Shown here piece after piece: positions 17,510 to 58,929 of a stretch of DNA of 64,000 nt (the first letter of the stretch is position 1; each line of letters starts with the position of its first letter). Source of the stretch: Candidatus Hermodarchaeota archaeon (lineage in GTDB: Archaea > Asgardarchaeota > Hermodarchaeia > Hermodarchaeales > Hermodarchaeaceae). Under the pieces are notes generated by a model. The model was given only the letters and a program-made list of their open reading frames with translations. It was not told the origin of the DNA and made no database searches. The position numbers and the translations under genes were made by a program. The stretch is from the NCBI GenBank assembly GCA_016839805.1, contig JAEOTO010000022.1:38881-102880 (forward strand), read 5' to 3'.

Positions 17510-18481
17510 GTGGTATCAAAGGAGAAGAAATGCAACATGAACGAGCTACGAATTGGACACCTCTCCACTGCTTATCACACAGCGTTTATTTTAATGGGCG
17601 GTCGGTGGGTGGAGGAGAAAATGCAGGTTAAAGCTGCTTGGAACCTATTTCCGACGGGACCTGCCATGATACAGGCTTTCAAAAAAGGTGAACTGGATAT
17701 CGGGTATATTGGACTTCCCCCAGCAATGATTGGGATGGAACAAGGATTGAATATCAAATGTGTTGGCGGTGGACACGTAGAGGGCACTGTGGTTACTGCG
17801 CTAGCTGGATTCCAAACCATTGATGAACTCGGCTCAGTGGAAGCGACATTAGCACAATTTGAAGGCAAGAAGATTGGCACCCCTTCTCAGGGATCGATTC
17901 ATGATGTCATTATCCGAAAACTCGTTACGGATGCCCAGCTAACTGATTCTGTGATAATCGAAAACTTTGAGTGGGCTGATTTTATCCTCGAAGCTATGGA
18001 AGACGAAGAGGTCGCCGGTGGTTGTGGGACTCCACCCCTCGCGGTATTAGCAAACCGGTATCTCAAAGCTCCCCTGGTTCTTCCTCCTAGCTCGATATGG
18101 CCATACAACCCAAGTTATGGGATAGTTGCGACTCACACAATGATCGAAGAAAATCCCCCCCTCGTCGAAGGTTTCCTTCAGATTCATGAAGATGCCTGTA
18201 ACCTTATGCGCCTCAAACCCAACGAAGCTTCTAAGCTAGCTGTAAAAGAAATTGCCATTATTGGAGAAGATTTCTTACAACAAGTCTTCCGTGTTTCTCC
18301 CAAATATTGTGCTAGTCTTCCCTCCGAATACATCGAATCAACACTTGCTTTTATACCGGTTCTCAAGAAGATGGGTTATATCAAACGAACCTTAACAGAA
18401 CGGGACGTCTTCGAAAAAAGTCTCATCGAAAAGGTTCATCCCGAAGCACCTCATTATAATGATCCAGGAAATCTCGCTTAA
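17510..18481 (+). CDS. ABC substrate-binding protein, NitT/TauT (NMT1/SsuA-like) family
   Basis: FPTGPAMIQAF..GELDIGYIGLPP, PSQGSIHD; likely start ATG at 17537; no adjacent permease. Confidence 0.8.
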   Translation: MVSKEKKCNMNELRIGHLSTAYHTAFILMGGRWVEEKMQVKAAWNLFPTGPAMIQAFKKGELDIGYIGLPPAMIGMEQGLNIKCVGGGHVEGTVVTALAGFQTIDELGSVEATLAQFEGKKIGTPSQGSIHDVIIRKLVTDAQLTDSVIIENFEWADFILEAMEDEEVAGGCGTPPLAVLANRYLKAPLVLPPSSIWPYNPSYGIVATHTMIEENPPLVEGFLQIHEDACNLMRLKPNEASKLAVKEIAIIGEDFLQQVFRVSPKYCASLPSEYIESTLAFIPVLKKMGYIKRTLTERDVFEKSLIEKVHPEAPHYNDPGNLA

Positions 18482-18762
18482 CCACCTGCAACAGGTGGAA
18501 TGAGTACCAGTTCACTTTTATCATGAACGGACGTGTTGAATCCTCTAAGAGTGTCGATGTTTTTTCCATCAACAAAATACACAATTTGTAATCCACGAAT
18601 ATCTCGACCTGATCGAATCATCCGTTGAAAAGATTTCCCATATTTCTTCGAAAGACGTTGAAGAACATGTTCAACCGTTGATCCGTCATCGATTTCGATC
18701 ACCTCTTCTCGTGTCCCAGTAACCTCGCGAATCACACTGAGATAACGGATCGTTACATACAT
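18478..18762 (-). CDS. MoaD/ThiS/SAMP-family ubiquitin-like sulfur carrier
   Basis: 94 aa beta-grasp pattern ending LIPPVAGG. Confidence 0.9.
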   Translation of the reverse strand: MYVTIRYLSVIREVTGTREEVIEIDDGSTVEHVLQRLSKKYGKSFQRMIRSGRDIRGLQIVYFVDGKNIDTLRGFNTSVHDKSELVLIPPVAGG

Positions 18763-49028: not shown

Positions 49029-49664
49029 ATGCCCCTGCCACAGAATATGCAACCAGACAACAATGATTCAAATTCAAGAAATAATGCGACATCAGAGAAA
49101 CTAACAGTGTATCCGGTGTATGTCTACCGGAGGACTTGTAAGCAAATATTCGATTTCTGCCTTCAAGAGGCAAAACGTAAACCCCCGCGTGAAGCGTTAG
49201 GTGTAATTCTAGGCTTCCGCCGGTCTTGGCAAGGTGAGAATTACATACGGGTCACTGATTGGGCGACAGGACGTGTTGAAGCTAGTATAGCGTATGCTCG
49301 ATTTACCCCAGAGGGTATTTTGGAATATCGCCTTGCATTACATGATCGGTACGGAGCGAATCCACATACCCCGCGGGTTGTTGGCCTCTGGCACTCTCAC
49401 CCTTTTGGTGGAGACCCTCACTTTTCATCTACTGATTTACGGACCTTCTTCAACACTCCCTTTTGTGCCGAAGGCAACGTGTTCTTTCTCATCGATCCCT
49501 TAAGTCGTATCTTCAAAGTTTACATGCTGCGTCCACGACTCGAAGAACCTGGTCTGCAACTCGAACGGGTTGATTGGTGTACGTATCAACCCTCGGTTCC
49601 TTTGGGTGATGCACCGCCAATCGAGGATCAGCTGCACGATGAGGAGCCTGTGGAAGATGAGTAA
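49029..49664 (+). CDS. JAB/MPN+ (JAMM) metalloprotease, putative Ubl-processing/deconjugating enzyme
   Basis: REALGVILG (catalytic Glu) and VGLWHSHP-x7-S-x2-D intact JAMM motif; LIDP. Confidence 0.92.
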   Translation: MPLPQNMQPDNNDSNSRNNATSEKLTVYPVYVYRRTCKQIFDFCLQEAKRKPPREALGVILGFRRSWQGENYIRVTDWATGRVEASIAYARFTPEGILEYRLALHDRYGANPHTPRVVGLWHSHPFGGDPHFSSTDLRTFFNTPFCAEGNVFFLIDPLSRIFKVYMLRPRLEEPGLQLERVDWCTYQPSVPLGDAPPIEDQLHDEEPVEDE

Positions 49665-50523
49665 GAAGAAGCCGACATCTATCGAATTACGGTTTTTTGA
49701 ACGTGACCAACATGATCGTACACGTCGTTGGTTAGGAGCGACTAACCTTGATACTATTCGACAATCCACTGTCCTTATGGTCGGGGCTGGTGCTGTGGGA
49801 AATGAAGTCTGTAAAAACCTAGGGTTGTTGGGTGTTGGGAAAATCATCCTTGTTGATCCTGATAAAGTTGCGGCATCTAATCTGAATCGGTGTGTGTTTT
49901 TCCGACCTGGCGATCATGATATTAAATTCAAAGTGGAGGCTGTAGCTGAGCGATTACCCGAACTCGCTACAACCACGGTGGTGGAACCACATGCGGTGCC
50001 AATCCAACACGCACCTGATACGGTGTGGGACGTGGATTTAGTTATCGTAGGTGTAGACAACCATTATGCCCGATACCTGTTGAATGCTAAGAATCTTAGC
50101 TTAGATCCCCCTCGCCTCATCATTAATGGGGCAATGGGGAAAGACCACATATCAGTAGAAGTCTTGGGTCCACCTCACACAGCCTGCATGATCTGTTCCT
50201 GGAGCAAAGACTTTGTAGACCATGTTGTAGCCAACGAAGTCCGCACTCAGTGCGACCCCTTTTTTGTGGACACAGTACCACGATTTCCCATGGTCAGCTT
50301 TGTGACATCCATCGTAGGCGCTGTCATGGCGTGGGAAGCCACTCGAGTTCTGGTTGGGTTGCAACAATGGCAGAATACTGGTCAATGGCAGCAAGGGCTC
50401 GAACCCGCATTTGGTCGGTTCATCCAATACAATCTTAGTAATCACCAGGCGAGTACTGGACCCATTATGCCCAATCCTCGATGCAGTGAAACCTTCTGCC
50501 GTGACAAACGCAAACACCTCTAA
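49657..50523 (+). CDS. ThiF/MoeB-family E1-like Ubl-activating enzyme
   Basis: VGAGAVG, D.D.V..SNLNR, K..A, GVDN..AR, CMIC, downstream Cys (TQCD, putative catalytic), C-terminal CSETFC; ATG at 49657 overlaps the JAB stop. Confidence 0.92.
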   Translation: MSKKKPTSIELRFFERDQHDRTRRWLGATNLDTIRQSTVLMVGAGAVGNEVCKNLGLLGVGKIILVDPDKVAASNLNRCVFFRPGDHDIKFKVEAVAERLPELATTTVVEPHAVPIQHAPDTVWDVDLVIVGVDNHYARYLLNAKNLSLDPPRLIINGAMGKDHISVEVLGPPHTACMICSWSKDFVDHVVANEVRTQCDPFFVDTVPRFPMVSFVTSIVGAVMAWEATRVLVGLQQWQNTGQWQQGLEPAFGRFIQYNLSNHQASTGPIMPNPRCSETFCRDKRKHL

Positions 50524-50538
50524 CAGACTGAGACAGAT

Positions 50539-52143
50539 TTAGATGAGTCCGATCGTTTTTTGCCATACTGTGGATGTAGGTTTCTGATCCGCCCAAAGTC
50601 GAAGATTCAAAATAACCTGTTTTGCAGCCTGAGGCATTGAGACGTTTAAATGCACGTTAACCGGTGCATTCAAACGTGGTGTAAACGGTTCAATTGCCAC
50701 GACCTGGTCCATCAATCCATCCGAAAGGGTGACCGTCATCACCATTTGATCAAGTGGATAAGATCCTGTCCGTGAAGGAGTTAATGAGACAGTCATAGGT
50801 AACCGACTCCCCCGAGGTACGGCATCAGGAACCTTCACATGAAGTTGTGCCGGGGCTGCACTTAGTCGAGGTGCCCCAGAATCAGGGACACTTATTACAC
50901 GGCTAACCTTCCAATTGGTGTTGATTTTCGGCTCCGATTTCCCGCGCTTCTTCTCGTCAATAAATTTCGCCCGATAATACCAACTTACTTTGAATTCTTG
51001 ACGAATCCGCGTATCCATCCAATTTCCAATAATCAATGGAAGATGACGATTGGTGACACCCAATAAACCCATTGATCCATGCCAGGTGGGATCAACAGGA
51101 ATCCATTGACCACGAAGCCAAATCTGACTCCAAGCATGGCGTTCCCACGCCTTGCCGTCAAAAGCCAATCCTGCTTCTAACCGGGCAGGAATTTTATTTG
51201 CACGGCACAACGCCGTAAACAACGCTGCATATTCTGTGCAATCCCCGACTTGATTTTCAATGGCATACGCTGCTCCCCTTTCATATTTTTGCGGGGTATA
51301 CCTCATCTTGTTAGTAACCGTCTGCATCGCAGCTTTAGTGTACTGAATTGGAGTTTTGTGCACCTTAGCTAGATCTCGGGCTAAGTCTTTGATTAAATGG
51401 TGGTGGCTTTCAATGAAGTTCTCTGGTTTCGTATATCGTTCGATATGCTGTGGAACCTCTGAACTAAGTGTGGTTGGGGGAAGATTGTATCGAACGGCAC
51501 GGTTGCGTACCAATGCTGTATAGCCACATTTGAACACTTTTCCTACCGGTAAGACGTCATGCGAAAATCGGATCCAGTTATTTCCGATGAGATCATTTTG
51601 TTCGCGACCTGATGTTGGAGAAAACTTAACATCGAGGATGTCCTGGCGAGGTGGTATCGATGGGGGCATCGCTATGAATGCGTTAATGTTTCCAATTTCA
51701 TATGGCGTACGATTCTTGAGGCTAACCGTATAGTTCACTCGGTGAATGACGATTGGTGGATGTCCAGCTTTAACAAAGAAGCAGCCCAAAACGTGGTGAT
51801 TATCTGGCGGGCCTTTGTTAGGGTCTTTGTCGACAACAAGCTTCTTGATTTTAGTTTCTTGAAATGCAACGAGAACGGTGTAGATGCCAGAAAGAAGGGT
51901 TTTCTTGGTTGGTAAGGAAAATTGTCCAAAATTCGTCTTGTCAAACCGGAAGGGTACTTTACTGATGGGCTTTCCAAAGGGATCGACGATATAGACTATA
52001 CCAGTGTCAATTTTCATGTTAGTGGTGACGGAACTGGTACGTGTCAGCTGAATAGTGATGGATTGACCAGCATTTACGCTTGGCATTCCATCATGACGGG
52101 ATGAAGTGATAATCTGCAAGGACACAGGAAGACCCTTTTTCAT
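50539..52143 (-). CDS. transglutaminase-like (Cys-His-Asp) protein with flanking beta-sandwich-like domains
   Basis: GDCTEYA.LF.ALCRA..IPAR, HAW, W.PVDPTW; ATGA overlap with the upstream gene. Confidence 0.85.
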   Translation of the reverse strand: MKKGLPVSLQIITSSRHDGMPSVNAGQSITIQLTRTSSVTTNMKIDTGIVYIVDPFGKPISKVPFRFDKTNFGQFSLPTKKTLLSGIYTVLVAFQETKIKKLVVDKDPNKGPPDNHHVLGCFFVKAGHPPIVIHRVNYTVSLKNRTPYEIGNINAFIAMPPSIPPRQDILDVKFSPTSGREQNDLIGNNWIRFSHDVLPVGKVFKCGYTALVRNRAVRYNLPPTTLSSEVPQHIERYTKPENFIESHHHLIKDLARDLAKVHKTPIQYTKAAMQTVTNKMRYTPQKYERGAAYAIENQVGDCTEYAALFTALCRANKIPARLEAGLAFDGKAWERHAWSQIWLRGQWIPVDPTWHGSMGLLGVTNRHLPLIIGNWMDTRIRQEFKVSWYYRAKFIDEKKRGKSEPKINTNWKVSRVISVPDSGAPRLSAAPAQLHVKVPDAVPRGSRLPMTVSLTPSRTGSYPLDQMVMTVTLSDGLMDQVVAIEPFTPRLNAPVNVHLNVSMPQAAKQVILNLRLWADQKPTSTVWQKTIGLI

Positions 52144-52532
52144 AATGCTTTTCCTTCATCATCTGGATCTGAATCGTTGGGTTCCCTCTCCTTATCTTGG
52201 AGAATAACTACTTTTCCTCCTTTCTTCTTTGGGGGTCCCATTCGCTGAACATTCCCAAGAATCACAATACTAGACCCTTCTTCACCCATCATTTCATCAT
52301 TTGTTGGTCGGGGACCAAGGAACTGGGTGAAATGAGGAGGGTGTGGTTCAACTCCTCTGACAATAGTTCCGGGACAGATACCATCTCCAGATTCTAAGAA
52401 AATCACTCGGCAGTTAGGGCACATATAGCTTCCACAGGTTGTGCAAATCCACCAAGTCCTTCGTGCTTCATCAAGTGGAACTTGGGCATCACAGGCAACA
52501 CATTTCATTTGTGAGGCGCCGTACACACTCAC
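52140..52532 (-). CDS. RING-like zinc-finger protein (putative E3) with disordered SIM-like tail
   Basis: CVAC-x15-CTTC-x4-CPNC-x11-CP...H; tail contains SIVIL and KVVILQD plus acidic residues. Confidence 0.65.
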   Translation of the reverse strand: MSVYGASQMKCVACDAQVPLDEARRTWWICTTCGSYMCPNCRVIFLESGDGICPGTIVRGVEPHPPHFTQFLGPRPTNDEMMGEEGSSIVILGNVQRMGPPKKKGGKVVILQDKEREPNDSDPDDEGKAL

Positions 52533-52756
52533 TCTTCAGGCTCCTCCTTATCTGGATGTTTGCGGGCTCGGTGAACTTTCACATCAAAATGAGGAGAAAA
52601 GTTTGGGGGACGTTCTTCTTCAAATGGAATATCCCGTTCTTCTAAGATGACGATACGATTCAATGAGGATGGGTGCTCTGATGGATCTTGATTATCCTTA
52701 TCAGATTCATGCTTCTCTTTTTCTACCTTAGGTGGGGGTTCCGTCATCTTGAGCAC
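52529..52756 (-). CDS. small acidic/disordered protein with RIVILEE motif
   Basis: 75 aa ORF abutting the E2 stop and overlapping the next start (GTGA); fills the operon gap. Confidence 0.55.
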   Translation of the reverse strand: MLKMTEPPPKVEKEKHESDKDNQDPSEHPSSLNRIVILEERDIPFEEERPPNFSPHFDVKVHRARKHPDKEEPEE

Positions 52757-53521
52757 CTAACTTTCTTCATCTTTATCAGAATTCTCTAGGATTCGGACTT
52801 TTGTTTGAAATCGCCTTTCCGGATCTTGGAGGATACGGGGAGGTCGTCGACTCGGGCTAGCTTCTGTGGATTGCGGTTCTAAAATTGTCACACGACCCTC
52901 TCTAGGTGGTGAAGGTGCTCCTATTTGGTGCCTTTCCTCCCAAAGACGCTCCAAAGTATTCACGATATTTTCTGAATCCTTCTCATACCAAGCCATTGCC
53001 ATACTGTTAAGCCCATGATCGGATTGGAATTGTGATGGTGGTTCAACACGATCAGGCTTTAGTAAAATAAAGAAAGGCAAGTCTTCTAGAATTCGATCCA
53101 ATTCTCCTCTGACTGAATAACATGCTTGTCCCTTTCCACTGGCAGCTAACCGGGGATGATAAAGCTGAGTTTCCGCTGCGGGACGAATCGAGCCAATATT
53201 TTGGGGATATTCTCGGGGAAGATCAAAGATAAACCGATGTTCATACTGAATGGCTCGCTGGTCGGTCAGCGTTCCTGGCTCATGAATATACCCGGGAAGA
53301 TTTCGCATAGTAAACTGAACGCGTTTATAGGCTCCATCTCGGTATCGGGCACTAATCGCGACCGTGAAATCAGAATTACTCCAACTAGTATCCTCACGCC
53401 GTGGTGGATCGGGAGGCCAACCCCGGCGTCCATACAAATTATTCATGGTATCAAAGAACGTCTGGATTTGTGTTTCGACTCGGGCGTTAAAGAGTTCCGG
53501 TGAAAACACTGGTCGTGTCAT
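52757..53521 (-). CDS. UBC/E2-like ubiquitin-conjugating enzyme
   Basis: F.FDLPREYP, TQLYHPRL...GQAC (HPN-like motif plus catalytic Cys), LN..A..WY; disordered C-terminal tail. Confidence 0.8.
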   Translation of the reverse strand: MTRPVFSPELFNARVETQIQTFFDTMNNLYGRRGWPPDPPRREDTSWSNSDFTVAISARYRDGAYKRVQFTMRNLPGYIHEPGTLTDQRAIQYEHRFIFDLPREYPQNIGSIRPAAETQLYHPRLAASGKGQACYSVRGELDRILEDLPFFILLKPDRVEPPSQFQSDHGLNSMAMAWYEKDSENIVNTLERLWEERHQIGAPSPPREGRVTILEPQSTEASPSRRPPRILQDPERRFQTKVRILENSDKDEES

Positions 53522-53580: not shown

Positions 53581-53904
53581 TTAGAATCCCACTTCAGGCA
53601 CTACATCGAGGAGGAAGAACTCATCATCTGAAATTTTGGGATCTAGTTCGCCAAAGGTGGCACCAGGGCTTAGTCGAGTGGGTTCCGGGGCTTTGCGGAT
53701 TAAGACAAACTCAGGACGTTGGTCACCAATTTTTGCCTTCGCCCAATCGTCAATACTTACACCTTCATCTCGAGCTTGGGTGACGAGGGTGCGGATGACT
53801 TCTTCAACTCGAGTGTCTTCATCAATCCCAATGCGAAATTCCTTTTGGCGAGGTTCAACGTCAACAATGATTGAGCGCCAAAAACCTTCTTCACTGCTCA
53901 TCAT
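53581..53904 (-). CDS. ubiquitin-like (beta-grasp) protein ending ...PEVG-F
   Basis: Beta-beta-alpha pattern (IIVDV..FRIGI.EDTRVEEVIRTL); LSPGATFGEL...ISDDEFFLL echoes ubiquitin [20 protein letters not shown]; penultimate Gly; first gene of the E2 operon. Confidence 0.7.
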   Translation of the reverse strand: MMSSEEGFWRSIIVDVEPRQKEFRIGIDEDTRVEEVIRTLVTQARDEGVSIDDWAKAKIGDQRPEFVLIRKAPEPTRLSPGATFGELDPKISDDEFFLLDVVPEVGF

Positions 53905-54144: not shown

Positions 54145-57045
54145 ATGACACCTAGGCAAGAGCCATCACCCTCAATATCACCCTTAGTATTTCGTAAGCT
54201 ACGCCTAGTGAACTTTGTCATTCACCGTGATACAACCATTCAGTTGGATAGCGCTCCCATCACATTAATCACAGGTTCCAATGGCAGTGGAAAAACTCTC
54301 ATCCTCGATGCATTACTCTTTGCCATTGGGGTTGATTCTCGCCGCGCGCAACGGCAACGAAACGCGGCCTTCATTGGACAATTTGATAAACATGCTGAAG
54401 TCAATTTAGAACTCAACAACTTCCAACTCAACGGTCGGCGTGTCCTACGGAGCCCAGACCCAAGCTTATCAAAGCTCCTTAATAATGACGTAGTGACGAT
54501 TCGCCTTCGAATTTACCCAGGTAATCGGATCGCCTATTGGCTCAATGAGCAACGTTCCATCAACGGTCACCCGATAACCCGAAAGGATATCCGGAAACTC
54601 TTTCGAGCAGCTGGTCTTTTTGGTGACTCTCCTTTAGCCATTACAGAAGCAGAAACTTTAGACCATTTTGCCTCGCAATCACCTCGCCGCAAATTCGAGA
54701 CATTACTCAATGAAACCGGGTTACGAAACTGGATGGAGAAACTTGAAGAAGCCCGACTCCTAGTCCTTCAAGCCCAGGCAAACGTCAAACCCCTCCAATA
54801 TCGTATTCGACATGAAGAACAACGCCTTCAACTCTTAAAAACCGCCTACGCAGCCTTTCAACAAAAACAACAACTCCAAGAACGCCTCCAAGAACTCGAC
54901 CTTGAAGCAGCTTGGTCAGAAGTAGCTTATCGAGAAGGATTGGTTGAACAACTTCAATCGCAGATGAATGAAATTCAAGCTCAATTTACTATGGAACGTG
55001 AAAAATTAACAAAGCTTGATAATCGAAGAGCTGAACTCGTTTCAAAGTATGAAACTGTACAACAGCAACGACAAAAGCTTCAAACCACAATGGAGACAGT
55101 TCGCGATCAGCTTATGCAAGCGAAAGGACACCGGCTAGGACTCGAAAACGAACTAACCAGTGTCAATACGCAAATGAAACGTTACACAACAACCAAACGT
55201 CGAAAACCTGCGAAAACCAAACACGAGACTTTACAACGCGAATTTGCTGCTTTCACCAAGGAACGTGATGACCTTGATGATCAATTAGATAACTTGCGTC
55301 AAGATATCGCTTTCACAGAGGAGGAATTATTTACTACACCACAACGGTTTCCACGTTTCGAAGAAAGTATCCTGCGTGCTTGTCAACGATATCGTGAAGA
55401 ATTAGACAAGATCGCACTATCGGCTTCAGTAATTGGTCCTCTGTTCTCTCTTATACAGATGAAACGTGATTATGAGGAGTATGAAACTGCCGTCAAGCTC
55501 GCAATGGGTAGGTACACTTACGCATTCATCGCCTTGGATCGTAATGCTTTCAGTGAAGCTAAGAGCTTATTCGATCGCCTTTGGCCTTCTGAAAAACCAG
55601 ATTTAGTGGTAGCTCGGACCAACCCAACAACCGCGGTAACTCACGATCGTCCTGAAGTATCTCCACCTGTTTTTGGTTGGGCTGCAGATCTAATTGAAGG
55701 GGATGTTTATGCAGTTAGTTTTCTCAGTCGTGTTGTTAATACAGCAGTCGCTGAAGAATCTGCAGATCCCAACGAGTTAGTTGATGCCACCCAACAATTG
55801 AAAGGAAATATCATCACGAGTGATGGGACGAGTTTTTACCTGCGAATTGGGGCTTTCGCCCGACCACCTCGCCCTGTAACCGTCCGGTTATCTACTGCTC
55901 TCCGGGAATTAGGACTGACTCAGGAAAGTAGTGTAATTAGACAACGGCTTCGAAAATCACGAGAAGACGAAGCCCGTTTAATGCAAGATCGCATGCGCTT
56001 GAATTCTGAAATTAGCCAACTACGCTTACAGCTTCAGGATTTACGGCAAGCAGGTTCCGCTGCCTTATCTGATGAAGAACGCACCTCGATTCTAGTGGAT
56101 TTAGAACGGCGTTCAGCAGACCTGCAACAGCAGATACTAGAATTAGATGTACGCTGTGATACCCTTGCCCAAGATAGCCAGGTTTGCAATTCTGATATGC
56201 TTCCCTTAATTTCTCGAATGCAAAAGTTGGACAGACAATTAGAAAATTTAGATCATCGCCGGTCGCGGCGGACAGCTGAGGTTGAACGAATTACTGACGA
56301 ACTTCGTCAACGTGAGGAAGAATTTACACACCTCAATACACAAGTGAAAGAGTTTCGAAAAAATGCGGAGAAGCTGGGTAATCGTCCTGCAAGCATACGA
56401 ACCCCCTCGGCTGTAAGAGACGAGCAATTACAGCTTCAGGCAATGATTGAAACAATTACAGCGACGGCAGAGGACCTTCATGCCTTCGAAACACAAGAAG
56501 AAATTGTCCAACAACTTCATGATTACCTAAAAGAGCGTAAACTACATTTAGAAAATTTGATGACGGATGTCGACAGGCGCTTAATCAAATGGCGAGAAGA
56601 ACTCGAAACGACAATTGAGAAATTAAACCAGCGAATGAATCAACTCCTCAGCCACTTCCTCAAACAGGTAAAACTCCAAGTTCGGTATCCTGATGAACCT
56701 AGCCGGGCAGAACTGAATCTCCAACTAGCGATTAACCGGAAAGAACAATGGCGAACCTATCAAGAGATGTCTGGCGGCGAACGGGTCCTAGCCACCCAAA
56801 CCTTTATCCTCGCACTTCACACTTTGGCGAAAAGCCCTCTGCACGTTATTGATGAATTTACCCAACGATTAGACGAAGCTAGTCGGGCAGCAGTTCTCAG
56901 TGTGGTTCAACGTACTCTCGATTTAACTCACATTGAGACGCTCATTCATCCCCAGTTCCTACTTATGGCTCCCTCTACCGTTGGTCTTCAGATTCCAGAG
57001 ACCATGCATCATATCATTTTGCTCAAAGGACAGGTGAAACCATGA
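54145..57045 (+). CDS. SMC-family ATPase, Smc5/6-like
   Basis: Walker A GSNGSGKT; two long coiled coils; central hinge VIGPLFSLI...AVKLAMG...AF; signature MSGGER; Walker B HVIDEF; D-loop TQRLD; QFLLMAP. Confidence 0.88.
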   Translation: MTPRQEPSPSISPLVFRKLRLVNFVIHRDTTIQLDSAPITLITGSNGSGKTLILDALLFAIGVDSRRAQRQRNAAFIGQFDKHAEVNLELNNFQLNGRRVLRSPDPSLSKLLNNDVVTIRLRIYPGNRIAYWLNEQRSINGHPITRKDIRKLFRAAGLFGDSPLAITEAETLDHFASQSPRRKFETLLNETGLRNWMEKLEEARLLVLQAQANVKPLQYRIRHEEQRLQLLKTAYAAFQQKQQLQERLQELDLEAAWSEVAYREGLVEQLQSQMNEIQAQFTMEREKLTKLDNRRAELVSKYETVQQQRQKLQTTMETVRDQLMQAKGHRLGLENELTSVNTQMKRYTTTKRRKPAKTKHETLQREFAAFTKERDDLDDQLDNLRQDIAFTEEELFTTPQRFPRFEESILRACQRYREELDKIALSASVIGPLFSLIQMKRDYEEYETAVKLAMGRYTYAFIALDRNAFSEAKSLFDRLWPSEKPDLVVARTNPTTAVTHDRPEVSPPVFGWAADLIEGDVYAVSFLSRVVNTAVAEESADPNELVDATQQLKGNIITSDGTSFYLRIGAFARPPRPVTVRLSTALRELGLTQESSVIRQRLRKSREDEARLMQDRMRLNSEISQLRLQLQDLRQAGSAALSDEERTSILVDLERRSADLQQQILELDVRCDTLAQDSQVCNSDMLPLISRMQKLDRQLENLDHRRSRRTAEVERITDELRQREEEFTHLNTQVKEFRKNAEKLGNRPASIRTPSAVRDEQLQLQAMIETITATAEDLHAFETQEEIVQQLHDYLKERKLHLENLMTDVDRRLIKWREELETTIEKLNQRMNQLLSHFLKQVKLQVRYPDEPSRAELNLQLAINRKEQWRTYQEMSGGERVLATQTFILALHTLAKSPLHVIDEFTQRLDEASRAAVLSVVQRTLDLTHIETLIHPQFLLMAPSTVGLQIPETMHHIILLKGQVKP

Positions 57046-57839
57046 TGGATACTAATGATACCTCAGTACATCGCCGTGTTTTTTCTGATCGTAAGATATG
57101 GCGAAAAACCTCGAAACGAAATTACAAGAAATATCGTGTCCCCTCTTATGGTACAAAGAGTGTCATCATCACTCTTTGGGATTTAACAAAGAAATACGAA
57201 ATTGCCTTGAAGCATAAAGAGGTATTTCCGATCAAAGAGTCTGAGATTGACCGTGAAGAAGTCACTGATGCATTTCATCTCCTGGAAACTCCTTGGGAAC
57301 GAAATCTTGATGGTCGATTTTATCACACTCTTTCCACTATGGTCCATCGCCGTGATTCTCAACTGGCTACCCCTGAAATCACATCCGAGCAATGGATTCA
57401 TCAGTTCGCAAATGTCGTCAAACGTCGGGCAACCCCATTACTTTTTCTTATCAGCCCTGAGCGATCCGTGCCACCTTTTGATCTACCACCAGTTGATTCT
57501 CCTGTCACACTAGCTGAACCACCTTCCCGTGATGACCGCATCGCATTGCAGAAGCATAAAGTGCCATTCGAAGAAGTTTCATTCACCTCATTAGAAACCC
57601 GGCGGAGTAGATTAGTCAAACGTTTACAGGGAAAACGATTCAAGTACTCGGAGTTAGCTGACCATCTCTCCAATTGGGAACTAGACCTTCTTAGCCAGAT
57701 GATCCGGGATAATTCCTTACCAGCGATTTTTGATAAAACCTCGGTAACGTTTCGTGAAGTGGCGTTCTCCAAATCAAATTCTGCATTCTCAGCTGTGGCA
57801 ATTGCAGCAAAGAAGTACGAGGAGGTCACGTCGCAATGA
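57042..57839 (+). CDS. putative kleisin (ScpA/Nse4-like) subunit
   Basis: Directly after SMC with ATGA overlap; helical N-part, Pro-rich linker, C-terminal winged-helix-like VSFTSLETRRSRLVKRL...FKYSEL; assignment is mostly positional. Confidence 0.45.
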   Translation: MMDTNDTSVHRRVFSDRKIWRKTSKRNYKKYRVPSYGTKSVIITLWDLTKKYEIALKHKEVFPIKESEIDREEVTDAFHLLETPWERNLDGRFYHTLSTMVHRRDSQLATPEITSEQWIHQFANVVKRRATPLLFLISPERSVPPFDLPPVDSPVTLAEPPSRDDRIALQKHKVPFEEVSFTSLETRRSRLVKRLQGKRFKYSELADHLSNWELDLLSQMIRDNSLPAIFDKTSVTFREVAFSKSNSAFSAVAIAAKKYEEVTSQ

Positions 57840-58477
57840 CAACAGATCCAGCAGAACCTAAAGATACAACTCTTGTGATAGAAGAAGCAGAAGATGAAGC
57901 ACTGGAACAACGCCATCTCCTAGGTCAACTCTTTGCCGCACTCACAGCTCGATATCGTGATGATGATGGCCATCTGAATGTCGGTGTAAAACGCCAAGAT
58001 TTACTTGAAGCACTCCACGTAAATAAGACCGGGTTAAACCGCCTTCTCGACCTGCTCCGCCAACAAATTACATCACTCGGGCTGGAACTTGTTGAATATC
58101 GCCTTGGTCGAGACACCCTCTATTGCATTCGAACACTCTATGGTGTTCCCGGGGAACTCACAGATCCTGAATACGCAGTCTTAGGTGTCATTATTGCCAC
58201 CATTGAGCAGGCAAGCAAAAGGCGGCGACCTCGTCGAATTGCCACAAAAGATCTCGAAACTATGCTAGTAGCCCGGGGGCGAATTTCCCGCTACCAACTG
58301 GATCGAATTCTACGCCGGCTCATCGAATTAGGTTATGTCACCCGAACTGCTCGATGCATCGCCTATGGACCACGCTTAGAACTAGAATTTGATGCGGAAC
58401 GCCGTGAAGCCATCGCGAGTGCTGCCACAATATACCTTGCTGGAGCCATCGCCCAATCAGAAGGTGACACCGAATGA
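57836..58477 (+). CDS. KITE-family tandem winged-helix protein (Nse1/Nse3-MAGE/ScpB-like)
   Basis: L...I.SLGLELVE, LT..E.A.L..I, L.RL.ELGYV and YGPRL.LE resemble Nse1/MAGE WH-A/WH-B motifs; ATGA overlap. Confidence 0.65.
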   Translation: MTTDPAEPKDTTLVIEEAEDEALEQRHLLGQLFAALTARYRDDDGHLNVGVKRQDLLEALHVNKTGLNRLLDLLRQQITSLGLELVEYRLGRDTLYCIRTLYGVPGELTDPEYAVLGVIIATIEQASKRRRPRRIATKDLETMLVARGRISRYQLDRILRRLIELGYVTRTARCIAYGPRLELEFDAERREAIASAATIYLAGAIAQSEGDTE

Positions 58478-58929
58478 AACTCGATTTATCAACGGTGGGC
58501 ATCTCTTGTGTCGCCTGTGGAACACGGACTACATTAGAACATGCTATCCAGGAGGGCTGGCACCAATGCCTTCGTTGCCAGTTTTTCATCGACCCCCAAT
58601 GCCTCCACATCGTTCAAACTACAATGGGAGGCGTGTGTCCAGCTTTCAGTCAAGGAGTTCCACGCCACACGCTTCAACCCGCGGACATCCCCTCCGAACA
58701 AATCTTAATCTTTGTGAAAGATCAATATCAAAAAGGTCGTGTCGGGGCCCTCATAGATACTCTCTTTTACACACAACGGCTCCCTCTCTCTCCACCTCAA
58801 CATGACTCAAAATATAAAGGGCCTTCCGAAGAGCCGCTGACCCGTGAAGAGATTTGGCAGCGCTATGGCTTAGTATTGGTACGAAGGGCTCACGGAAAAT
58901 GGGTCACTTGGGAAAAAATTCTATTTTAA
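58474..58929 (+). CDS. RING-like zinc-finger protein, paralog of 52140..52532
   Basis: CVAC-x16-CLRC-x4-DPQC-x11-CP...GV..H; ATGA overlap with the KITE gene. Confidence 0.6.
   Translation: MKLDLSTVGISCVACGTRTTLEHAIQEGWHQCLRCQFFIDPQCLHIVQTTMGGVCPAFSQGVPRHTLQPADIPSEQILIFVKDQYQKGRVGALIDTLFYTQRLPLSPPQHDSKYKGPSEEPLTREEIWQRYGLVLVRRAHGKWVTWEKILF

Follow-up and report, generated by a model that had tools for sequence, protein, structure and literature searches.

We report that a small gene in the genome of Candidatus Hermodarchaeota archaeon probably specifies, in precursor form, a ubiquitin-like modifier (Ubl) that can be conjugated and that belongs to a private E1–E2–JAB system. The source DNA is assembly GCA_016839805.1, contig JAEOTO010000022.1, positions 38,881 to 102,880. 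This stretch of 64,000 nucleotides is referred to as the window, and all coordinates below are positions within it. Our reading is built on the fold of the product, a conserved Gly beneath a variable cap, intact motifs in the E1 and JAB proteins, an invariant HPR motif and Cys in the E2-like partner, the co-occurrence of the four genes, and the fusion of Ubl to E2 in distant homologues.

Results

The Ubl precursor is encoded on the minus strand at 53581..53904, where the preliminary description had placed an open reading frame, and its 107-aa product ends in P-E-V-G-F followed by the stop codon. The true length is probably 106 aa, because orthologues begin at the second Met (second ATG). The predicted processing site spans 53584..53589 (minus strand). 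It consists of the codon for Gly106 (53587..53589), which would form the mature end, and that for the Phe107 cap (53584..53586), with the TAA stop at 53581..53583. Of 400 Asgard genomes, 31 carry the gene, each in one copy; across the lineages that have it, the locus is single-copy and keeps its synteny. Within family f1, the Ubl is the best-conserved protein of the locus, with identities of 84–100% versus 68–75% for the E2-like protein and 70–83% for the E1.

Nothing above threshold was found for the Ubl in scans of Pfam, NCBIfam, and PADLOC. When the Pfam scan was extended to an E value of 1, none of the models for ubiquitin, ThiS/MoaD, Urm1, UFM1, or ATG8 was matched; the sole lead is YukD (PF08817), which is sub-threshold (E 0.051; 14.8 bits versus a cut-off of 27). 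PDB sequence and profile searches gave zero matches at E values up to 10, and a search of the ESM Atlas yielded no orthologue at ≥0.9, returning generic beta-grasp families only. A second metagenome search for Ubl relatives recovered close relatives only, whereas one carried out with both Ubl–E2 fusion proteins described below (P0028 and P0036) was empty. A profile search of genome contigs with the E2 alignment found Asgard MAGs only. One candidate, P0033 (1924 aa, eight HMMER "stretches"), was dropped as a false positive, being a low-complexity repeat protein, and P0023 was excluded from the alignments because its C-terminal half is unrelated sequence.

The fold of the Ubl was addressed by structure prediction. 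AlphaFold run on the single sequence was uninformative (pLDDT 47.6), and that model was discarded. With a 27-sequence alignment (A2), a confident model was obtained (pLDDT 87.2, pTM 0.77), with the elements in the order b1 (residues 10–16), b2 (21–27), a1 (33–46), a2 (51–59), b3 (64–70), b4 (76–78), and b5 (95–103). As modeled, the fold is a beta-grasp plus one added helix, and no helix lies ahead of strand 1. Foldseek and VIA-align place the model among ubiquitin-like beta-grasps. Its top structural neighbor is the EccD/YukD Ubl domain (Z 10.5 over 88 aligned residues); other neighbors are the parkin Ubl (Z 9.9) and SUMO and ubiquitin (Z about 9), the last two being matched in Foldseek at E about 1e-4 and a target TM of about 0.7. 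The beta-grasp that had been predicted from the letters alone is therefore borne out by both the model and its structural neighbors. Past strand 5, the predicted mature protein has just three residues, E-V-G, resembling the tail of ubiquitin.

The preliminary description also pointed to an extra segment after helix 1. This segment, residues 46–61 (53722..53769, minus strand), is present; it takes in the last part of helix 1, then a short loop and the additional helix 2 (51–59). It is not, however, peculiar to this one protein, since the helix is conserved family-wide. Gly60 is invariant throughout the Ubl family, down to 29% identity, Trp54 is kept in at least 90% of members, and Lys58 is invariant in close orthologues. 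A ubiquitin mutant bearing the MoaD insertion is included in the Foldseek matches to the model.

The C-terminus was examined across orthologues. Val-Gly is invariant at 42 orthologous loci from four Asgard families (f1, f2, f11, and f12), and conservation ends abruptly past it, with 0–3 unrelated residues trailing (up to 4 in metagenome clusters), a pattern well beyond accident. In the family of the window itself (18 genomes), the cap is F, L, Q, K, I, D, IK, QKQ, VLP, FSS, or none; E, R, G, RK, KVEA, and EVEA are also seen in the metagenome clusters. The Ubl stops exactly at the Gly in 6 of the 6 f12 loci read and in the single f2 locus, and family f11 has one genome with Gly at the end and another with Gly-Phe. 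Eight distant metagenomic relatives also stop exactly at VG, and a distant subclade (P0027, P0038, and P0041–P0043) has Ala in place of the terminal Gly. None of the other operon proteins has Gly as its last residue. The single-Gly terminus with a one-residue cap, first read from this one gene, thus recurs in the aligned ortholog C-termini as a conserved Gly with a variable cap, and the comparison supports a single Gly under a short cap as the terminus of the Ubl family.

The gene next to that of the Ubl encodes a 254-aa divergent E2-like protein (52757..53521, minus strand), and the two genes always adjoin each other in all four families. Typical UBC-fold E2s have an HPN-type motif with the catalytic Cys about 10 residues downstream. 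In the E2-like protein, the Asn of the canonical motif is replaced by Arg, giving HPR at residues 122–124 (53150..53158), and the candidate catalytic residue, Cys134 (53120..53122), falls 12 residues past the His of this motif. His122, Pro123, Arg124, and Cys134 never vary, even at 36% identity. Nothing above threshold was obtained for the E2-like protein from Pfam, NCBIfam, or PADLOC, and the UQ_con model was matched by 1 of 14 members of its family (E 0.0033). Comparison with UBC E2s, both solved ones and the genome's own, gave weak collinear matches over the HPN–Cys region (E 0.09–0.7), and in the Atlas, the feature clusters closest to the protein are those of bacterial E2s of the UQ_con type (score 0.93). 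These observations, in which every sequence match is sub-threshold, constitute weak evidence for a UBC fold in the 254-aa partner. The disordered tail of the protein bears three SIM-like motifs. Two distant homologues, P0028 and P0036, are Ubl–E2 fusions, in which ...VVG-G runs straight into the E2 N-terminus.

A minimal E1 of 288 aa is encoded on the plus strand at 49657..50523 (ThiF, E 8.3e-34), counted from the ATG at 49657; the listed open reading frame starts at a TTG at 49570. The protein is a single adenylation domain with a GxGxxG motif, an NR motif, and two pairs of Cys that flank one further Cys, all of which are kept to 50% identity. Among solved structures, it best matches UBA6, UBA3, and UBA1, in each case in the active adenylation domain (E 3.5e-20), and UBA5 and ThiF trail at about 1e-10. 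By these matches, the adenylation domain stands closer to those of eukaryotic E1s than to ThiF. The E1 gene overlaps by 8 nt the gene for a 211-aa JAB/JAMM metalloprotease (49029..49664, plus strand; Prok-JAB, E 4.9e-10), the predicted cap-trimming and deconjugating enzyme. Its Glu, HSHP motif, and S-x-T-D motif are kept in all aligned orthologues, so that the JAMM protease described as intact at the outset has a catalytic motif that is both complete and conserved. No correlation ties the presence of JAB to that of a cap. Cap trimming cannot be the only job of JAB, because lineages with a capless Ubl still retain it. The Ubl, the E2-like protein, the E1, and JAB co-occur in all four families, and the JAB–E1 pair co-occurs with Ubl–E2 even when the pairs are unlinked, as in genome G001, where Ubl–E2 is on C13 and JAB–E1 is on C20.

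Three further proteins are encoded between the E1 gene and the E2-like gene, all on the minus strand. A 75-aa acidic protein (52529..52756) has one SIM-like motif; its position is kept across f1, and the motif region is also found in f12. A Cys-rich zinc-finger protein of 130 aa (52140..52532) is a candidate RING-like E3 or adaptor, with sub-threshold matches to IBR, zf-RING_16, and zinc-ribbon models. It is a paralogue of the protein encoded at 58474..58929, the cross-matches showing 30–40% identity over about 57 aa. The third is a 534-aa transglutaminase-fold (papain-like) protein (50539..52143; Transglut_core, E 5.8e-22), whose gene adjoins or neighbors Ubl–E2 in f1, f2, f11, and f12. This protein may act as another peptidase or as a component that binds targets.

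Divergent from the Ubl operon is a second SMC-like operon (54145..58929, plus strand; SMC_N, E 1.2e-24). Its products are a 966-aa SMC paralogue, a 265-aa partner for which the Pfam scan was empty, a winged-helix partner of 213 aa, and a zinc protein of 151 aa. Elsewhere on C22 there is a canonical, hinge-containing SMC of 1193 aa, together with ScpB. The PDB matches of the SMC paralogue are a mixture of Smc and Smc1/3/4/5/6, and the SMC5/6 type is not singled out by sequence. The SMC-like operon is collinear with JAB–E1(–Ubl–E2) in f12 and f2, and the Ubl system is tied to the SMC5/6-like operon in three families. Family f7, which is without the Ubl, has a transglutaminase homologue within 10 kb of a four-gene SMC-like operon. 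A bacterial-type defence island was considered as the setting and was not adopted: PADLOC gave nothing beyond generic E1/JAB matches, and the locus is syntenic and single-copy.

The genome contains other Ubl systems. The di-Gly MoaD/SAMP-like open reading frame named in the preliminary description is present at 18478..18762 (minus strand) and ends in ...PPVAGG. A canonical Ub(GG)–E2–E1–RING operon is located on contigs C47/C49 beside UEV/ESCRT-like genes, and its ubiquitin has a GG end and no cap. An additional ThiF-type E1 is encoded on C21. When the Ubl family was compared by hhalign with the genome's own ubiquitin, no similarity was found (probability 5.8%), and the same was true of the genome's own MoaD (probability 5.8%); the comparisons yielded just a 21–22-column match over strand 2 and helix 1. 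Because the genome also has the GG-ubiquitin operon and the GG MoaD, the capped Ubl represents a third, separate system, and the 288-aa E1 therefore has no other obvious client. The earlier suggestion of a Ubl family apart from archaeal ubiquitin and SAMP is supported by the fold, the conserved Gly with its unconserved cap, the lack of a match to the ubiquitin, ThiS/MoaD, Urm1, UFM1, and ATG8 models, the lack of similarity to the genome's own ubiquitin and MoaD, and the separate presence of the GG-ubiquitin operon.

Discussion

These data allow us to propose a pathway for the capped Ubl. The JAB metalloprotease would clip the Phe107 cap, leaving Gly106 as the free C-terminus; JAB is the presumed trimming enzyme. 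The minimal E1, which is probably a homodimer, would adenylate Gly106, and the Ubl would then probably move to the conserved E1 Cys that lies between the two zinc-binding Cys pairs. From there it would be received by Cys134 of the adjoining divergent E2 and be passed onto target lysines, possibly with the aid of the RING-like zinc protein. JAB would also undo the modification. The extra helix 2 of the Ubl may serve as a family-specific recognition surface. The neighboring SMC5/6-like complex and DNA-bound proteins nearby are the likely targets or setting.

Comparison with known systems suggests that the true precedents of the capped Ubl are Bil of Type II and Bub of Type I rather than UFM1 or ATG8. 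In Type II Bil, a conserved Gly is followed by up to nine non-conserved residues, which are cut off by the JAB of the operon; in the E. aridi protein, Gly97 is followed by Ala98, and JAB cuts after the Gly (PMC10557695). Bil has a separate E1 and E2, and its E1 has a four-Cys zinc site (PMC10557695). A single beta-grasp Ubl, one conserved Gly, a short variable tail, and an operon JAB are common to Bil and the Asgard system. In PADLOC, the Asgard E1 matched BilD weakly and generically over the Rossmann region (3.5e-7), and the Ubl and the E2-like protein were unmatched in a library that may lack BilA/BilB models. The Bil E1 has an IAD-AAD-CYS architecture, whereas the Asgard E1 is a single adenylation domain of 288 aa. 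Moreover, Bil is bacterial, antiphage, and without an E3, whereas the Asgard system has a RING-like zinc protein, a transglutaminase-fold protein, and a tie to an SMC-like operon.

In Type I Bub, a Ubl–E2 fusion is cut after a conserved Gly by a JAB–E1 fusion (PMC11601596). Bub (BubAB/BubCD, formerly 6E/DUF6527) has a minimal, ThiF/UBA5-sized E1 (PMC11601596; PMC11601603). The pairing of Ubl with E2 and of JAB with E1, which takes the form of fusions in Bub, recurs in the Asgard locus as adjacent genes, with an 8-nt overlap between JAB and E1, and the Ubl is fused to E2 in the distant homologues P0028 and P0036. The two systems differ in chemistry: Bub forms Tyr/Ser oxyesters and has no catalytic cysteines, whereas the Asgard proteins have the invariant E2 Cys134 and the conserved E1 Cys. 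A DUF6527 serine protease, a feature of Bub, was not found among the Pfam matches of the Asgard locus proteins scanned, and the Ubl of Bub frequently contains two or three beta-grasp domains, unlike the single-domain Asgard Ubl. Since the logic of JAB trimming to a Gly followed by E1 and E2 has already been proven for Bil and Bub, the underlying principle is not new.

Likenesses to other Ubls are less complete. The preliminary description had compared the terminus with those of UFM1, ATG8, and Bil. The Val-Gly and short tail do agree with that comparison, but the partner enzymes are not of the UBA5/UFC1/UfSP or Atg7/Atg3/Atg4 kind. UFM1 has a mature Val-Gly that is exposed by removal of a very short tail, and its E1 is minimal and homodimeric. 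Nonetheless, UFM1 is not among the top structural neighbors listed for the Asgard Ubl, and its Pfam model is unmatched. Its E1, UBA5, is a match to the Asgard E1 that is ten orders of magnitude worse than UBA6, UBA3, and UBA1. UFC1 is without an HPN-like motif, whereas the Asgard E2-like protein has HPR, and the UFM1 protease is the cysteine protease UfSP, whereas the Asgard protease is a JAB metalloenzyme. ATG8 has two N-terminal helices before the beta-grasp; the Asgard model has none, and no ATG8 Pfam match was obtained. Like the Asgard Ubl as proposed here, SAMP, MoaD, and ThiS are small archaeal beta-grasps with activation by ThiF-family enzymes and deconjugation by JAMM proteins. SAMPs, however, end in GG and need no E2, whereas the Asgard system has E2-like and zinc-finger proteins. 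The archaeal ubiquitin operon shares a Ubl, an E1, an E2, a small zinc-finger E3 candidate, and a JAB with the capped system. Unlike the latter, it encodes true ubiquitin (PF00240) ending in GG; its E2 is of the UQ_con type and has HPN, and its E1 carries a ubiquitin-fold domain at the C-terminus. In Caldiarchaeum subterraneum, an Rpn11 homologue is reported to process the ubiquitin precursor (PMC6043591, PMC5654768).

Other readings of the locus must be weighed against conjugation as proposed here. The Ubl could be a non-conjugated beta-grasp adaptor like YukD or EccD. Its contact with the E2-like protein or with the SMC-like complex would then be non-covalent, and its Gly would serve folding or docking only. 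EccD and YukD are themselves non-conjugated Ubls and account for both the sole Pfam lead and the top structural match. The former, however, stays at 14.8 bits against a cut-off of 27, and type VII secretion (ESX/T7SS) genes were not found near the Ubl locus. Fusion to the E2-like protein would be equally expected of a stable non-covalent partner, the SIM-like motifs on the operon proteins suit such binding, and one subclade has Ala instead of Gly. A structural Gly nevertheless fails to explain why many genes stop there, or why sequence and length are free beyond it. In addition, every family with the Ubl also has an adenylating E1 and a JAB isopeptidase, even where these are unlinked to it, and both enzymes would lack a substrate. 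We therefore regard the adaptor role as unlikely. Even less consistent with the locus is a role in sulfur transfer, in which the Ubl would be a ThiS/MoaD-type carrier that the neighboring ThiF-family enzyme adenylates and thiocarboxylates, with no protein conjugation. The beta-grasp insertion after helix 1 does sit where that of MoaD does, and the small E1 does belong to the ThiF family. Against this, the Ubl shows no ThiS/MoaD Pfam match and no similarity to the genome's own MoaD, its terminus is a capped single Gly and not GG, and the E1 resembles the adenylation domains of eukaryotic E1s more closely than it does ThiF. The system also includes a JAB, a zinc-finger protein, and an E2-like protein whose Cys is invariant, and cofactor-synthesis or sulfurtransferase genes were not found in the locus. 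Together, these observations make a sulfur carrier highly improbable.

A different question is which enzyme would process the Ubl. Conjugation could take place as proposed while the transglutaminase-fold protein chiefly removes the cap and cleaves the conjugates, with JAB serving otherwise. VG, FG, and GG termini are processed by the cysteine proteases UfSP, Atg4, and Ulp, and the transglutaminase-fold protein shows the residues of a Cys–His–Asp triad. Its gene is in or near the Ubl–E2 operon in all four families and is nearer to the Ubl than JAB is in f2 and f11. However, every characterised prokaryotic Ubl system uses JAB for this purpose, including Bil, Bub, the Caldiarchaeum Rpn11 homologue, and the haloarchaeal JAMM, and JAB and E1 have overlapping genes that travel together. 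The transglutaminase homologue is, moreover, found within 10 kb of the SMC-like operon in f7, which has no Ubl, and several f1 genomes carry a version that matches residues 131–423 only. We consider it improbable that this protein, rather than JAB, is the main processing enzyme.

The most speculative part of our reading concerns the targets of the conjugatable modifier. It is possible, if doubtful, that in some Asgard archaea the Ubl is a SUMO-like tag dedicated to an SMC5/6-like chromosome complex, with its own enzymes bearing SIM-like docking motifs. Targeting would then be directed by two paralogues, the RING-like fourth subunit from the SMC operon and its counterpart from the Ubl operon. 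A recent preprint treats the link between SMC5/6 and Ubl ligases as a eukaryotic addition (10.1101/2024.01.07.573240).

Conclusions

The capped Ubl would represent a third Ubl family, an orphan by sequence, which is accompanied by a dedicated E1, E2, and JAB in no fewer than four families of Asgard archaea. The surprise is limited, since the principle is already known. Experimental proof of the logic of a single Gly under a disposable cap has, however, so far been limited to the bacterial antiphage systems Bil and Bub. The locus offers a compact, expressible set of five or six small proteins with which to probe how Ubl pathways diversified before eukaryotes. The repeated tie to an SMC5/6-like operon yields a testable hypothesis, namely that chromatin bound by SMC complexes is tagged with a Ubl in archaea. 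Should the modifier indeed act on the SMC5/6-like complex, the link between SMC5/6 and Ubl ligases (the Nse1 RING and the Nse2 SUMO ligase) would be pre-eukaryotic or would have originated independently in the closest relatives of eukaryotes.

Fold and Family-Defining Helix of the Ubl

The ORF at 53581..53904 (−) encodes 107 aa and terminates in P-E-V-G-F-stop; its product is probably 106 aa long because orthologues start at the second Met. Without an alignment, AlphaFold gave no confident model (pLDDT 47.6); with the 27-sequence family alignment A2, it returned a model with a pLDDT of 87.2 and a pTM of 0.77, containing strands at residues 10–16, 21–27, 64–70, 76–78, and 95–103 and helices at residues 33–46 and 51–59. 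PDB neighbors identified by Foldseek are EccD Ubl domains, SUMO1, ubiquitin, ISG15, and Hub1 (E 1.5e-4 to 1e-3, target TM ~0.7). VIA-align, which is independent of Foldseek, matches EccD5 over 88 residues with a Z of 10.5 and an rmsd of 2.5, and gives a Z of 9.9 for the parkin Ubl and ~9 for SUMO, ubiquitin, FAT10, and YukD. The aligned model and both sets of neighbors uphold the ubiquitin-like beta-grasp proposed in the preliminary description; the predicted fold singles out no one known Ubl family.

The segment previously flagged as an internal insertion, residues 46–61, runs from the end of helix 1 through a loop and helix 2. Relative to ubiquitin it is additional, at a site where MoaD also has additional residues, as Foldseek matches include a mutant ubiquitin with the MoaD insertion. 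It is not peculiar to this Ubl, however, being a helical segment found in all family members. G60 is unchanged even in relatives with only 29% identity, W54 is retained in at least 90% of the family, and K58 is invariant among close orthologues. The helix-2 segment defines the family and most likely forms a recognition surface.

A Conserved Terminal Glycine under a Variable Cap

A single-Gly terminus under a short cap had also been proposed, and ortholog C-termini confirm it, the Gly being conserved and the cap not. Across 18 close orthologue clusters, the conserved end is DVVPEVG, after which conservation stops; the residues past VG are none, F, Q, E, R, K, G, D, RK, FSS, VLP, KVEA, or EVEA. 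In whole genomes of the window's own Asgard family, f1, the cap is 1–3 residues long in 17 of 18 members and missing from one. Gly is the last residue in all six loci read from family f12 and in the single f2 locus, and one f11 locus ends at Gly and the other at Gly-Phe. VG is likewise the exact C-terminus in eight distant metagenomic relatives (29–47% identity). The tail beyond the last strand consists of E-V-G only, three residues, and resembles that of ubiquitin. Because Val-Gly is invariant, constraint is gone one residue later, and many genes stop there, the pattern reads as the signature of a Ubl with a putatively reactive C-terminal carboxylate.

Unusual distant forms, all from short metagenomic contigs, are P0027, P0038, P0041, P0042, P0043, P0028, P0036, P0021, and P0022. 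Ala replaces the terminal Gly in a subclade of five distant relatives, two of which end exactly at Ala. Several distant relatives carry 40–80 additional residues beyond VG. In P0028 and P0036, VVG-G runs directly into a complete copy of the E2-like protein, yielding Ubl-E2 fusions.

Partner Proteins

Four genes lie downstream of the Ubl on the same strand, encoding a 254-aa E2-like protein (52757..53521, −), a 75-aa acidic protein, a 130-aa Cys-rich zinc-finger protein (52140..52532, −), and a 534-aa transglutaminase-core protein (50539..52143, −). Genes for a JAB protease (49029..49664, +) and a ThiF-family E1 (49657..50523, +) overlap by 8 nt and are convergent with the Ubl operon.

The 254-aa protein has no Pfam match, and even relatives with only 36% identity retain its H122, P123, R124, and C134 without exception. 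A PDB profile search with its family retrieved mainly E2s, with the PxxYP, HPN, and Cys region aligned and the Cys in register (E ~0.5). Comparison with the genome's own E2 by hhalign aligned the same motifs and a D-x-LN-x-x-A motif beyond the Cys (E 0.09). One of 14 family members matches UQ_con (0.0033). In the ESM Atlas, the closest clusters by feature consist of bacterial proteins, some of them with UQ_con (score 0.93, 187 shared features). These four grounds are each weak but agree in pointing to a divergent E2. Its third HPR residue is Arg, where canonical E2s have Asn, and this may alter the chemistry.

The E1 conserves GxGxxG, NR, and two Cys pairs with a single Cys between them. The pairs are a predicted zinc site, as in Bil and SUMO/NEDD8 E1s, and the intervening Cys is the candidate catalytic residue. 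Among solved structures, the E1 is closest to active adenylation domains, those of UBA6, UBA3, UBA1, and UBA7 (3.5e-20 to 1e-12), with UBA5 and ThiF (~1e-10) well behind them, though the protein is only 288 aa long. The JAB keeps its Glu, HSHP motif, and S-x-T-D motif, and the zinc-finger protein gives sub-threshold IBR and RING-like matches.

A short SIM-like motif, [RK][IV]x[IV]L and then acidic residues, is repeated in the tails of three operon proteins (52140..53521, −). The E2-like protein has three copies, which its orthologues keep; the zinc-finger protein has two and the 75-aa protein one. In f12, the motif-bearing region of the 75-aa protein is recognizable after the E2. By analogy with SUMO-interacting motifs, these may be docking sites for the Ubl that work by adding a strand. 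In several f1 genomes (loci L022, L026, L027, L028, L034, and L037), the transglutaminase-fold match covers only residues 131–423 of 534 (~850 nt), so shorter forms without the N-terminal Ig-like part seem to exist.

A Third System in the Genome

Scans of the Ubl against NCBIfam and PADLOC gave no match, Pfam returned YukD alone at sub-threshold level, and the PDB holds no sequence relative. Profile comparison with the same genome's ubiquitin and MoaD-like protein found no similarity. These null results support the earlier proposal of a family apart from archaeal ubiquitin and SAMP, and the Ubl family is new and orphan in sequence.

Contigs C47 and C49 of the same genome (L047, G000:C47:1-4000; L048, G000:C49:1-3000) carry a canonical Asgard ubiquitin operon encoding a 78-aa uncapped ubiquitin with a GG end, a UQ_con E2 with HPN, an E1 with a C-terminal ubiquitin-fold domain, and a RING-H2 protein. 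A Cys-less UEV-type E2 adjoins it, followed by ESCRT-like genes of coiled-coil type. The E1 is divided between the ends of the two contigs, which overlap in sequence and probably join. A further ThiF-type E1 lies on contig C21. Because the genome holds both this GG-ubiquitin operon and a MoaD-like ORF with a GG end (18478..18762), the Ubl is the tag of a third system.

Distribution and Linkage to an SMC-like Operon

The source genome comprises 2.3 Mb in 50 contigs and is 87% complete. When 1.84 billion cluster representatives were searched exhaustively with HMMER, only 26 clusters matched at E ≤ 0.001. MAGs with close relatives are labeled Promethearchaeota and Hermodarchaeota, which assigns the window to an Asgard archaeon of the Hermod group. 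By profile search, the Ubl occurs in 31 of 400 genomes of the phylum, always in single copy and in four families only: f1 (17/18), f2 (1/1), f11 (2/2), and f12 (10/12). When the E2 motif was scanned across 185,579 prokaryote species (GTDB, one genome each), Asgard MAGs alone matched. No other protein of the f1 locus is as well conserved as the Ubl (84–100% identity, versus 68–75% for E2, 70–83% for E1, and 59–74% for the SMC-like protein), as would be expected of a modifier that fits many partners.

Divergent from the Ubl operon in the window is a second SMC-like operon (54145..58929, +) encoding a 966-aa SMC_N protein, 265-aa and winged-helix partners, and a 151-aa zinc protein. The 966-aa protein is a second SMC paralogue; contig C22 encodes a canonical 1193-aa SMC with a strong hinge match, plus ScpB. 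Gene order is fixed in f1: the zinc protein, winged-helix protein, 265-aa protein, and SMC-like protein share one strand; the Ubl, E2, 75-aa, zinc-finger, and transglutaminase genes diverge from them; and E1-JAB is convergent. In f12, the order differs and the arrangement is tighter, with SMC-like, 265-aa, winged-helix, zinc protein, JAB, E1, Ubl, and E2 on one strand and the zinc finger and transglutaminase ~7 kb off. In the f2 genome G001, contig C20 carries a collinear run from the SMC-like gene through the zinc-protein gene to JAB and E1, and Ubl-E2-transglutaminase lies on C13. Loci L040, L043, L046, and L060 show the collinearity of f12 and f2. Therefore, two pairs are conserved, Ubl-E2 and JAB-E1, and they are found together even where they are not linked; three families show a tie between the system and the SMC-like operon.

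The zinc protein of this operon has homologues in 60 of 400 genomes, among them 28 of 31 in f7. Two f7 loci read (L062, G015:C1:1338000-1357999; L063, G033:C1:577600-597599) have no JAB, E1, Ubl, or E2 beside the four-gene operon. Because the zinc protein is more widespread than the Ubl and the operon in these two f7 loci lacks the Ubl system, the latter is an add-on to an older four-gene operon in some lineages. A transglutaminase homologue lies within ~8 kb of the SMC-like operon in both f7 loci. The zinc proteins at 52140..52532 (−) and 58474..58929 (+) are paralogous in their Cys-rich N-terminal parts (~57 residues; 30–40% identity in cross-hits), a sequence-level tie between the two operons.

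Proposed Mechanism and Relation to Known Systems

The best-supported reading is a five-step path. The JAB would trim the cap, the E1 would adenylate Gly106, the Ubl would pass as a Cys thioester from E1 to E2 and be joined to lysines, and the JAB would undo the modification. Each proposed step has experimental precedent in prokaryotes. Cap-less lineages retain the JAB, so it probably serves mainly in deconjugation and only secondarily in removing the cap. A possible alternative processing enzyme is the papain-like transglutaminase-fold protein.

The likeness to UFM1 and ATG8 drawn in the preliminary description is superficial, neither being present among the structural neighbors listed; Bil and Bub are the real precedents for JAB trimming followed by E1 activation. 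In Type II Bil, the Ubl has a universally conserved Gly followed by up to nine non-conserved residues, the cap residue keeps ATP from binding in the pocket of the E1, and the operon JAB cleaves past the Gly (PMC10557695). In Type I Bub, a JAB-E1 fusion cleaves a Ubl-E2 fusion past a conserved Gly, and the E1 is minimal and homodimeric (PMC11601596; PMC11601603). The Asgard system shares its pairing of parts (Ubl-E2, JAB-E1) and minimal E1 with Bub, thioester-competent cysteines with Bil, and an additional zinc-finger protein with the archaeal ubiquitin operon, but by sequence it falls within none of the three. It is a new version of a known type of system, and it gains interest because the host is an Asgard archaeon, the E1 domain is eukaryote-like, and the tie to a putative SMC5/6-like operon recurs.
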